A stretch of 64,000 nucleotides of DNA, from NCBI RefSeq assembly GCF_003334335.1, contig NZ_QOWQ01000027.1; one strand, given 5' to 3'. This DNA is from Escherichia coli (GTDB lineage Bacteria; Pseudomonadota; Gammaproteobacteria; Enterobacterales; Enterobacteriaceae). The position numbers and the translations under genes were made by a program. The stretch's first letter is position 1. The number at the start of each line of letters is the position of its first letter. Below the pieces are notes generated by a model. The model saw only the letters and a program-made list of their open reading frames with translations. It was not told the origin of the DNA and did no database searches. Positions 24,318 through 60,367 of the stretch are shown one piece after another.

Positions 24318-24417
<100 letters not shown>

Positions 24418-40922: not shown

Positions 40923-41095
40923 GGTCAGTGCGTATTTGCAGCACGACGTTATCAAAGGTGATCATCGTCGATTTACAAAAAATACACTTAGCGCCCAAAG
41001 GGTTTCGCTCCGTCACATCGAATGCCGATGTGCGGTACTGTGAACCATGACAACATGGACAGCGGAAATGGAGATGTTGAGTAATAATGGCAACC

Positions 41096-41308
41096 TTAGA
41101 GCGTAACAACGTTCGCTGCCGCGGGGCCACGTTGCCCCTGCTCAATAGAAAATTCAACTTTCTGATTTTCGTTCAGCGTGCGGAATTCATTGCTCTGGAT
41201 GGCGGTGAAATGGACGAAAACGTCTTTGCTGCCATCATCAGGAGTGATAAAGCCAAAACCTTTATCTGCGTTAAACCATTTTACTAAACCAGTCATTTTA
41301 TTAGACAT
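41096..41308 (-). CDS. cspG: CspG, cold-shock protein
   Basis: 70 aa [24 protein letters not shown] recognised as CspG. Confidence 0.95.
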
Positions 41309-41593
41309 ATTTTACTTCCTTCATTTTGGGCCTTTCGGCAAACAGGGCTTTAATACAGAAACTACTTAGTGTTCAGGAGAGAGACTCAAAAGAAGGGGAT
41401 AATGCCTGATAATGAGAACTGCTTTAGTAAACTACTTTGTATGCTGTCTGTCTTTCAAACCGACGCAGCTATTAACGCATGATAATTGAGATTAAGCAAA
41501 TTTTATTTTAGCCGTCCGGCGGTCTTAAATATCGCTGGCTTTATTTTATTAACCCCGTATAGTGCAGCGCAGTATTTTCAGTAAGGAATTTGT

Positions 41594-41806
41594 TTGTCCC
41601 GTAAAATGACAGGAATTGTCAAAACCTTTGATCGCAAAAGCGGCAAAGGATTCATTATCCCCTCCGACGGTCGTAAAGAAGTTCAGGTCCATATTTCCGC
41701 ATTCACTCCCCGCGACGCAGAAGTGCTTATACCAGGATTACGTGTGGAATTTTGCCGCGTAAATGGCCTGCGAGGACCAACAGCGGCAAATGTTTATCTC
41801 TCTTAA
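41594..41806 (+). CDS. cspH: CspH, cold-shock-like protein
   Basis: 70 aa [24 protein letters not shown] recognised as CspH. Confidence 0.93.
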
Positions 41807-42247
41807 TATGACGCTGCTTGTTTAAAGCTGACTGGTTTTATTGGAATAGTGCAATAGTCAACATCATACATTATAACATCAGTTACTTTTCCACAAAGAA
41901 ACTAATCCATTTAAGCGAATATCTCTGCACCTAATAGTTACAAATGCCATTTAACAGCCAGTTATAGTACCACTTGAAACTATATTACCAACAATAATTA
42001 ATAGCTTTCGTAACAATTTCCTTATCTTTAATTTGTATTTTGCTAAGATTTATCTTATGCTCACAAGTCGTATTTCCAGAGGGGGATAGTTAACAATCTT
42101 ATATTTCCCTCTGCGCGCCTTTCCTACCCGCAGTATATAGTGCAAGCGGTATGAGGAAAGGGAGATTTCACAAGGATGTTATACTCAAAGTAGACAATCC
42201 TGATCTCAAGCGTACGTATTGTCCATGCGATGAATAAAGGAAAAGTT

Positions 42248-42553
42248 ATGAAACACAAGCTTTCTGCAATCCTTATGGCCTTCATGTTGACGACGCCAGC
42301 TGCGTTTGCTGCCCCTGAAGCAACAAACGGGACCGAGGCAACGACGGGTACTACTGGCACCACAACGACCACTACCGGCGCAACCACGACTGCTACTACC
42401 ACTGGTGGCGTGGCTGCTGGCGCTGTCGGCACGGCGACAGTTGTCGGTGTGGCAACGGCTGTTGGTGTGGCGACGTTGGCAGTTGTTGCAGCAAATGACA
42501 GTGGCGATGGCGGTTCTCATAACACCTCAACCACCACGTCCACTACACGCTAA
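42248..42553 (+). CDS. gfcA: GfcA, Thr-rich small protein, first gene of the group 4 capsule operon
   Basis: Start refined to ATG 42248 (MKHKLSAILMAF) with aagga SD; signal peptide plus Thr/Gly/Ala low-complexity region; 101 aa. Confidence 0.88.
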   Translation: MKHKLSAILMAFMLTTPAAFAAPEATNGTEATTGTTGTTTTTTGATTTATTTGGVAAGAVGTATVVGVATAVGVATLAVVAANDSGDGGSHNTSTTTSTTR

Positions 42554-42659
42554 TACCGCTTTAACGCGTCGAAATTAAAGTTAAATGATACCCGGTTGCG
42601 ATATTCGTACCGGGCTTTAGAGATTTGCATTTTTTTAATTAACCTTTCAAGGATTAAAG

Positions 42660-43304
42660 GTGCGCCCTCTTATTTTATCGATTTTCGCACTATTTCTTGC
42701 GGGATGTACGCACAGCCAGCAAAGTATGGTCGATACATTTCGCGCCAGCCTTTTCGATAATCAGGATATCACCGTAGCGGATCAGCAGATCCAGGCGTTG
42801 CCTTATTCCACTATGTATTTACGCCTTAATGAAGGGCAACGAATCTTTGTGGTACTGGGATATATAGAACAAGAACAAAGCAAATGGTTATCCCAGGATA
42901 ACGCCATGCTGGTTACCCACAATGGACGTCTTTTAAAAACCGTCAAACTTAATAATAATCTGCTGGAAGTGACAAATTCCGGGCAGGACCCTCTGCGTAA
43001 CGCGCTGGCAATAAAAGATGGCAGCCGCTGGACGCGCGATATTCTCTGGAGTGAAGACAACCATTTTCGCTCTGCGACCCTGAGTTCTACTTTTTCCTTT
43101 GCTGGATTAGAGACGCTGAATATTGCGGGTCGCAATGTGCTGTGTAATGTCTGGCAGGAAGAGGTGACTTCCACGCGGCCAGAAAAACAGTGGCAAAACA
43201 CATTCTGGGTCGATTCGGCTACTGGCCAGGTTCGTCAAAGTCGGCAAATGTTAGGCGCAGGGGTTATTCCCGTAGAAATGACGTTTCTTAAACCCGCACC
43301 ATGA
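42660..43304 (+). CDS. gfcB: GfcB lipoprotein
   Basis: 214 aa ORF with lipobox (LAGC), recognised as GfcB. Confidence 0.9.
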   Translation: MRPLILSIFALFLAGCTHSQQSMVDTFRASLFDNQDITVADQQIQALPYSTMYLRLNEGQRIFVVLGYIEQEQSKWLSQDNAMLVTHNGRLLKTVKLNNNLLEVTNSGQDPLRNALAIKDGSRWTRDILWSEDNHFRSATLSSTFSFAGLETLNIAGRNVLCNVWQEEVTSTRPEKQWQNTFWVDSATGQVRQSRQMLGAGVIPVEMTFLKPAP

Positions 43305-60279: not shown

Positions 60280-60367
60280 GGAAGTGTGGCCGAGCGGTTG
60301 AAGGCACCGGTCTTGAAAACCGGCGACCCGAAAGGGTTCCAGAGTTCGAATCTCTGCGCTTCCGCCA
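60280..60367 (+). tRNA. serT: tRNA-Ser (anticodon UGA), 88 nt with long variable arm and CCA end
   Basis: GGAAGTGTGGCCGAGCGGTTGAAGGCACCGGTCTTGAAAACCGG...GCTTCCGCCA; cloverleaf readable, anticodon loop cTTGAAa. Confidence 0.95.

Follow-up and report, generated by a model that had tools for sequence, protein, structure and literature searches.

The threonine-rich tract of Escherichia coli GfcA: low complexity in the protein and a gene length essentially fixed at 306 nt

The gfcA gene of Escherichia coli, which encodes a small threonine-rich protein, is essentially fixed in length at 306 nt in this species and does not behave as a contingency locus; the low complexity of its product probably reflects selection on amino-acid composition, not a DNA repeat array. 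We studied the gene in a 64 000-nucleotide stretch of an E. coli genome (the window, from contig NZ_QOWQ01000027.1), in which a sequence-only reading had singled out the core of GfcA as a low-complexity tract prone to slippage and length variation. The gene, the Thr-richness of its product (30% Thr was noted in PMC8592465) and the idea that the protein is glycosylated are already known, and the feature is an ordinary one. Added here are a population estimate of the length variation with two rare indel alleles, and the placement of the Thr tract as a probable lineage-specific expansion of a variable linker, and not as the conserved core of the protein family.

The gfcA coding sequence lies between 42248 and 42553 of the window on the + strand (306 nt, 101 a.a., from the ORF call and its translation, MKHKLSAILMAFMLTTPAAFAAPEATNGTEATTGTTGTTTTTTGATTTATTTGGVAAGAVGTATVVGVATAVGVATLAVVAANDSGDGGSHNTSTTTSTTR), within an enclosing ORF that spans 42230–42553 (+). 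The ATG at 42248 is favoured over the in-frame upstream ATG at 42230, because a Shine-Dalgarno-like AAGGA can be read from the sequence at 42238–42242 (+), 5 nt before the former; the ATG at 42248 is also the start of the RefSeq gfcA CDS in strain E2865. The gene shares 100% identity over 305 nt with annotated gfcA genes in many RefSeq E. coli genomes (e.g. E2865), and the product of the identical gene is named 'threonine-rich inner membrane protein GfcA' (WP_001295358.1) by RefSeq; the gene in the window itself shows no difference from that of E. coli GfcA (formerly YmcD). At the identical locus of E2865 the gene order is cspG-cspH-gfcABCDE-etp-etk-appA, with gfcA as the first gene of the operon, and in the window the ORFs of gfcB (42660–43304, +; by ORF and annotation a YjbF-family lipoprotein gene, whose homologues carry Pfam PF11102) and gfcC are found directly 3' of gfcA. 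Based on the sequence identity and this canonical neighbourhood, the name GfcA is correct, as the sequence-only reading had it. Scanning GfcA against Pfam gave no match at E ≤ 0.001 (only DUF4781, E = 4.5), and scanning it against NCBIfam gave nothing significant (the best family, WGxxGxxG, had E = 0.04 and 14.5 bits as compared with a cutoff of 35). Exact look-up of the 101-a.a. GfcA and of the 107-a.a. variant described below in large protein collections found no entry.

The protein can be divided into a putative leader and three further segments. The leader is a predicted Sec-type signal peptide (a.a. 1–21, MKHKLSAILMAFMLTTPAAFA; 42248–42310, +) with a K-rich N-terminus, a hydrophobic core and an A-x-A motif, which would be cleaved at AFA/AP (the slash marks the putative site); an equivalent MKK...AFA/AP leader is found in the small upstream ORFs of 55 homologous loci. 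It is followed by a Thr-rich polar spacer (a.a. 22–52; 42311–42403, +) composed of 18 T, 5 A, 4 G, 2 E, 1 P and 1 N (58% Thr, 18/31), by a hydrophobic Gly/Ala/Val segment (a.a. 53–82, GGVAAGAVGTATVVGVATAVGVATLAVVAA; 42404–42493, +) with a Kyte–Doolittle (KD) 19-residue maximum of 2.16, and by a polar C-terminal tail (a.a. 83–101, NDSGDGGSHNTSTTTSTTR; 42494–42550, +) that contains an Asp-Gly motif, an oligo-Thr run and a terminal basic residue. The tail aligns with the GGGDGxNTGTTTTTTTSTTR tail of YjbE-type homologues found across the Enterobacterales. The single 'core' of the sequence-only reading merges two of these segments, the polar Thr spacer and the hydrophobic Gly/Ala/Val segment. The segments also differ in how they vary between E. 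coli alleles: non-synonymous changes, T<->A for the most part, are found above all in the Thr spacer, allele differences in the hydrophobic segment are mostly synonymous, and the variation of the tail within Escherichia is limited to its last residues.

Judging from the signal peptide, the Thr spacer would be extracytoplasmic. An AlphaFold2 model built with a 28-sequence family alignment was of low confidence (mean pLDDT 47.7), with no predicted structure for the Thr tract (pLDDT 36–42) and a low-confidence helix at residues 61–83 (pLDDT 50–64). The segment at a.a. 53–82 probably forms a helix that spans a membrane or associates with one: in 44 out of 48 family members a comparable segment has a KD of at least 1.6, the usual threshold for transmembrane segments. 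On the Hessa scale this Gly/Ala-rich segment is borderline (an unweighted sum of +0.98 kcal/mol); it is rich in small-xxx-small motifs, and the net charge of the tail that follows it (−1) misfits the positive-inside rule for an N-out/C-in topology. A transmembrane helix common to the whole family is uncertain, because the paralogous YjbE of K-12 reaches a KD of only 1.24.

The 52-a.a. string quoted by the sequence-only reading is found exactly at a.a. 32–83 (nt 42341–42496), inside the interval 42300–42550 where it had been placed, and its description as almost entirely T, G, A and V is confirmed. The string consists of T20 A12 G9 V9 L1 N1 (96% T/G/A/V), and the whole protein has T30 A20 G13 V9 out of 101 residues. 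The Shannon entropy of the tract is 2.11 bits, as compared with a minimum of 3.05 bits among 1981 background windows of 52 a.a. that were collected from all ORFs of at least 150 a.a. in the 64-kb window; as the tract falls below every one of the background windows, its low complexity is far beyond chance.

At the DNA level the picture is different. Codon position 1 of the core is A or G in 51 out of 52 codons and position 2 is C in 32 out of 52, which fits ACN/GCN/GGN/GTN codons, and all four Thr codons are used (ACG 10, ACC 9, ACT 7 and ACA 4). Neither TRF nor an exact-repeat search found perfect tandem repeats in gfcA. The earlier statement that the tract is encoded by imperfect short repeats holds weakly: TRF reports a single array (21 nt × 2, with 80% identity) and there are 11 6-mer pairs as compared with 4.7 ± 3.4 in the background (top 6%), but the longest exact direct repeat is 8 nt, a length reached by 22% of background windows of the same size. 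We also considered whether synonymous codon choice avoids DNA repeats, and rejected this idea: the longest repeat was 9.4 ± 1.4 nt in synonymous-codon shuffles, and in 29% of the shuffles it did not exceed 8 nt, so that the observed 8 nt is no different from the shuffles. Since there is no DNA repeat array and the wobble positions are scrambled, the regularity resides in codon positions 1 and 2, i.e. in the amino-acid composition. It is likely that positions 1 and 2 are constrained while the wobble positions are free, and a locus whose low complexity is driven by composition in this way, with no array of DNA repeats, would not be hypermutable.

The length of gfcA was compared across 5426 complete E. 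coli genomes. The whole-gene search found gfcA in 3608 of them (about two thirds); in genomes without gfcA the entire operon is absent and cspH abuts appA. A query with the tract only (42300–42440) matched 3604 genomes, 2528 of them with at least 99% identity, 1001 with 95–99%, 68 with 90–95% and seven with 80–90%. The standard span was observed in all evenly sampled full-coverage matches, both for the tract query (59 out of 59) and for the whole-gene search (39 out of 39), and all intact gfcA copies among the matches listed are 306 nt long except for seven variants. These seven genomes (two with a deletion and five with a duplication), which were found by querying with the variant alleles, make up 0.2% of the ∼3600 gfcA carriers. 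The 80–90% identity band, in which alleles with 15 nt missing or 18 nt added are expected, holds exactly these seven genomes, and indels of 3–9 nt were excluded only by sampling ∼100 matches spread over the results and ∼120 best matches. The 90–95% band contains SNP-rich alleles of normal length (e.g. SY3626 with 12 SNPs and SC455 with eight SNPs in the queried stretch), alleles with 6–9% nucleotide divergence keep 306 nt, and an allele from a cryptic clade with 29 SNPs is still 306 nt long. The hits of protein homology searches were mainly frameshifted or fused fragments, which are useless for a length census; the searches led, however, to the 15-nt deletion allele and to E. albertii.

The two variant alleles are both in frame, both affect the Thr spacer and both are found on an O157-type haplotype. 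In one of them, encoding 96 a.a., 15 nt (ACCACTACCGGCGCA; 42368–42382, +) flanked by the direct repeat ACCAC are missing according to the alignments. This allele is found in complete genomes CAVP773 and OY754834, where it sits in degraded-looking loci (CAVP773 has an IS5 remnant just upstream), and in draft genomes it is fused via a gfcBCD deletion. In the other, encoding 107 a.a., the alignment shows a perfect tandem duplication of 18 nt (TACTACTGGCACCACAAC; 42349–42366, +). All five complete genomes with this allele are from ETEC: four belong to one strain series (CP0242xx, two of them labelled O169:H41) and the fifth is L7_E1373, and one identical protein (WP_001717979.1) was found where checked. 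The seven variants are apparently the result of two events, each in one allele background. Far more common than a change of tract length are insertions of IS elements in or next to gfcA (e.g. IS1 upstream of the gene in K-12, IS5, IS3 inside the gene and IS1 at its 3' end) or the loss of the whole operon.

These observations bear on the claim that the tract is prone to slippage and length variation, for which a comparison of gfcA lengths across E. coli had been suggested as a check, with no length variation among strains as the outcome that would speak against it. One part of the claim stands, as length variants do exist and the two indel alleles fall in the Thr tract; the expected proneness is weakly supported, given a variant frequency of 0.2%, a standard length in the rest of the sampled copies and no perfect repeats. 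In this view the Thr tract would be a simple-sequence locus prone to slippage, at which frequent changes in length between strains tune or vary a surface structure. The two in-frame indels, one a deletion between ACCAC repeats and the other a perfect 18-nt duplication, would be in line with it, and so would the differences in tract length among Escherichia species and within E. albertii (285 versus 291 nt) and a +9 bp insertion that arose in the paralogue yjbE during experimental evolution (PMC8540638). However, apparently only two events account for the variants in ∼3600 genomes, the longest exact repeat is no longer than in the background, the 306-nt length is kept across alleles up to 29 SNPs apart and the locus is lost far more often by IS insertion or operon deletion. 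We regard this explanation as highly improbable, and for complete genomes it is already largely refuted. Like contingency loci, gfcA has a low-complexity coding sequence in a gene for a surface structure, and its rare indels occur at short direct repeats; but contingency loci have homopolymers or short tandem repeats, whereas gfcA has no perfect tandem repeats and its variants are rare. In addition, the indels of gfcA are multiples of three, so that they do not cause the on/off frameshifting of contingency loci. Under the explanation that we prefer, in which composition is what is selected, in-frame indels would be rare events, mediated by short direct repeats within the spacer. The Thr tract therefore need no longer be counted among the candidates for phase- or length-variable surface loci.

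Over longer time scales the length of the protein does vary, again in the spacer. The E. albertii genes are 285 and 291 nt long, and the differences lie in the Thr spacer. With GfcB serving as the anchor for synteny, we collected 61 gfcB/yjbF loci from GTDB species representatives of the Enterobacterales (genera Escherichia, Cedecea, Superficieibacter, Citrobacter, Klebsiella, Mixta, Erwinia, Pantoea and Winslowiella). In 55 out of the 61 loci there is an ORF of 76–101 a.a. with the same plan, ending 100–290 nt upstream of gfcB/yjbF (76–97 a.a. in the genera other than Escherichia); three of the six loci without such an ORF have less than 250 nt of upstream sequence. The plan starts with a signal peptide ending in A-x-A/AP, followed by a low-complexity linker that is variable; then come a conserved aG-AAG motif, a hydrophobic segment of small residues and a (G)GGDGxNT motif, and the protein ends with five to seven Thr residues and usually a terminal Arg. 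Almost all of the length differences are found in the linker after the signal peptide. In most homologues this linker is Ala/Gly/Glu-rich and 0–15 a.a. long (e.g. the short Ala/Gly linker of the Pantoea type, AEEAGAAAGAQAG), and Thr-rich inserts at this position are found only in Escherichia and in a few Erwinia and Pantoea (loci L026, L028 and L072), the latter being independent of the Escherichia tract. As the length differences of the family are confined to the position of the spacer, the Thr tract of Escherichia is best explained as a lineage-specific expansion of the variable linker, and the conserved parts, the hydrophobic segment and the C-terminal tail, are presumably the functional ones.

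The Pfam family YjbE (PF11106) is matched by 21 out of 28 aligned members of the collection (best E-value 5.5e-33), and GfcA itself falls below the threshold. Comparison of the GfcA-type and YjbE-type alignments by hhalign gave a probability of 98.4% (E = 6.6e-15 over 77 columns), values that are somewhat inflated by compositional bias and shared signal peptides. Together with the common plan, the alignments identify GfcA as a divergent member of a GfcA/YjbE family. E. coli YjbE, annotated as 'exopolysaccharide production protein YjbE', is encoded by the first gene of yjbEFGH, upstream of the gene for the lipoprotein YjbF (the GfcB homologue), as GfcA is in its own operon; the two proteins have in common a signal peptide, a low-complexity linker, a small-residue hydrophobic segment, an Asp-Gly motif and a C-terminal oligo-Thr run, and the K-12 YjbE fits the family alignment. 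YjbE differs in its length (80 a.a.), in a linker that is Ser-rich rather than Thr-rich and lacks the 31-a.a. Thr expansion, and in a hydrophobic segment that in K-12 is weaker than that of GfcA (KD 1.24 versus 2.16). The genes differ in distribution as well: yjbE is present in 5421 of the 5426 genomes, as compared with about two thirds for gfcA. All 5421 copies of yjbE are at least 95% identical, and 39 out of 39 sampled full-length copies are 243 nt long, so that yjbE is at least as length-stable as gfcA.

In EPEC, gfcA deletion mutants lose the capsule and have an altered O-antigen ladder, and both defects are corrected by a plasmid carrying only gfcA (PMC3853201); GfcA is otherwise described as uncharacterised (PMC11494523). 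Our literature search for later work on GfcA, YjbE and GfcD found no experiments that characterise GfcA, its location and the cleavage of its signal peptide included. We propose that GfcA is a small envelope protein, exported by the Sec pathway and needed for the group 4 (O-antigen) capsule. After cleavage of the signal peptide (a.a. 1–21) a mature protein of ∼80 a.a. in three parts would be left: the 31-a.a. Thr spacer may be a disordered, hydrophilic stretch on the periplasmic side; the Gly/Ala/Val segment of ∼30 a.a. would most likely anchor GfcA in, or insert it into, a membrane, a step that is uncertain; and the conserved tail, with its oligo-Thr run and basic residue, would be the likeliest site of interaction or modification. 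The Thr spacer itself is probably an Escherichia-specific expansion of the family's variable linker. Taken as a whole, this explanation (an exported protein with a Thr spacer, a membrane anchor and a conserved tail, encoded by a locus of stable length) seems to us a fairly likely one. The O-antigen (group 4) capsule of EPEC, EHEC and Shigella depends on GfcA. Its hydrophobic segment and Asp-Gly/oligo-Thr tail, which the family conserves, would be the first parts for experimenters to mutate.

Two other explanations have GfcA, or something attached to it, leave the periplasm through GfcD. Larson et al. (2021) speculated that Ser/Thr residues of GfcA might be modified by O-antigens, with subsequent export through GfcD (PMC8592465), and the sequence-only reading had likewise suggested that the tract may be O-glycosylation-like or mucin-like. 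In such a scheme GfcA would be a mucin-like carrier, whose Thr residues are O-glycosylated with O-antigen units in the periplasm and which is exported via the two-barrel outer-membrane protein GfcD to anchor or nucleate the capsule. The spacer is 58% Thr and probably extracytoplasmic, the oligo-Thr run is kept at the C-terminus throughout the family, gfcA always adjoins homologues of gfcBCD/yjbFGH, the EPEC deletion both shifts the lengths of the O-antigen ladder and abolishes the capsule (PMC3853201), and the N-terminal barrel of GfcD is similar to FapF, a peptide/amyloid exporter (PMC9603273), all of which would suit a carrier. However, the operon was not found to encode a dedicated O-oligosaccharyltransferase, most family members lack the N-terminal Thr tract and are Ala/Gly-rich at its position, and in a competing model GfcD exports a lipid-anchored polysaccharide and not a protein (PMC11494523); we consider the carrier explanation unlikely. 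Its published form is weakened for the Thr tract in particular, because the tract is not conserved in the family, and if glycosylation matters at all it is therefore more likely to take place at the conserved C-terminal tail. The resemblance of GfcA to a mucin is one of composition and of published speculation. The tract may share with the O-glycosylated Ser/Thr-rich segments of other bacterial proteins (PglL/PilO-type substrates) an extracytoplasmic location, disorder and richness in Thr, Ala and Gly, but it differs from them in having a single Pro, in its lack of conservation among homologues and in an operon without a transferase. The FapF-like barrel of GfcD (PMC9603273) would also suit the export of GfcA to the cell surface as a glycine-zipper or amyloid-like peptide and not a membrane protein, with self-association of the Gly/Ala/Val segment. 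The small-xxx-small motifs, the borderline Hessa value, the charge of the tail and the K-12 YjbE, which has no convincing transmembrane segment, point in this direction; the 44 out of 48 family members above KD 1.6 point away from it, as does the AlphaFold2 model, which (with low confidence) has a helix and not strands. On balance a secreted peptide of this kind appears quite improbable. A bolder idea is that peptides of the GfcA/YjbE family are secreted carriers or anchors, whose conserved oligo-Thr tail (and, in Escherichia, the expanded Thr tract) is O-linked to polysaccharide, with the peptide threading through the FapF-like barrel of GfcD/YjbH. This is a long shot; if it were true, the group 4 capsule and the Yjb exopolysaccharide would be bacterial proteoglycans, and the 15-nt deletion and 18-nt duplication alleles would alter the number of attachment sites.

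That the gfcA ORF is a mere leader or regulatory element for gfcBCDE, encoding a peptide without a function of its own, might be suspected from its small size and position as first ORF of the operon, from its transcript level (gfcA was reported to have the highest transcription of all surface-structure genes in EPEC; PMC3853201) and from a hairpin on its 3' side. We give this idea almost no credence: it is already contradicted by the restoration of the capsule with gfcA in trans, proteins from different genera conserve the signal peptide, the hydrophobic segment and the C-terminal tail, and most changes in the hydrophobic segment are synonymous. The hairpin, between gfcA and gfcB, is weak and not significant (z = −1.37), and scans around gfcA found no promoter and no terminator-like site. 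On its 5' side, gfcA in the window is separated from cspH by an interval of 441 nt with no IS1; in K-12, by contrast, an IS1 element lies between cspH and gfcA, and in K-12-type records the stretch from cspH to gfcB is 777 nt longer than in the window.

Insertion sequences have entered gfcA and its surroundings recurrently, as is seen in five of the loci retrieved from other genomes (L002, L009, L012, L013 and L079). The elements and their outcomes vary: IS5 has replaced most of gfcA, an IS5 remnant lies upstream of the gene, IS1 has inserted at its last codons and altered the C-terminus, and IS3 has split it. In our spread sample, 9 out of 41 locus-bearing genomes carry an IS element in the cspH–gfcB interval, a count inflated by K-12 laboratory derivatives. 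K-12-type genomes have an IS1 between cspH and gfcA, and their cspH–gfcB interval is longer by 777 nt (comparison rows H43–H46 of the genome matches). No IS element is found in the cspH–gfcA intergenic region of the window (41806–42248), and the promoter region of the operon is therefore present here in its uninterrupted, non-K-12 form. The whole operon can also be missing: gfcABCDE-etp-etk is entirely absent in about one third of the complete E. coli genomes (roughly 1800 out of 5426), and in these genomes cspH adjoins or overlaps appA directly (e.g. locus L080 of strain JJ2434; genome match rows H82–H99).

Thr-rich inserts (e.g. DVATTTTASTTTG) are also found outside Escherichia, at loci from an Erwinia sp. 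(L026), Pantoea coffeiphila (L028) and Erwinia sp. JUb26 (L072). These inserts are independent and occupy the same position after the signal peptide as the Thr tract of Escherichia; Thr-rich expansion seems to recur at this post-signal-peptide linker within the GfcA/YjbE family. At the other end of GfcA, the last residue (codon 42548–42550) differs between alleles, the rest of the tail being otherwise invariant: it is Arg in the window allele and in most family members; the cryptic-clade allele and that of strain BE2-5 end in Pro. E. albertii GfcA ends in His, or in a shortened form (...STR).

For the paralogue yjbE (2907–3149 of locus L075), a 9-bp insertion has been published for a mucoid E. 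coli clone from an evolution experiment (PMC8540638). In one complete genome, EC25 (CM169476, match row H325), yjbE is matched only from nt 60 onward and in two places, which suggests an insertion or a rearrangement.

ORFs of 90–104 a.a. overlap gfcA, both antisense (42124–42520, minus strand) and in the +1 frame (42306–42578, plus strand). Rich in Pro, Val, Arg and Leu, they seem to arise as a side effect of the biased codon composition. Among the GfcA-related database 'proteins', many result from a frameshift that takes the reading into the +1 frame (e.g. entries P0008, P0011 and P0025).

The gfcA–gfcB intergenic region contains a hairpin (ACCCGGU...ACCGGGC, 42591–42614), in principle a conceivable attenuator of read-through from gfcA, which is highly expressed. 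The fold does not reach significance, however (z = −1.37), and no site resembling a terminator was called. Elsewhere in the window, the Rfam matches above the gathering threshold are a cspA-type thermoregulator 5′ UTR on cspG (41042–41464, minus strand) and, all on the plus strand, Ysr251 (6721–6914), ES036 (CssrF; 24353–24395), naRNA4 (CssrE; 30281–30359) and a tRNA (60280–60364).
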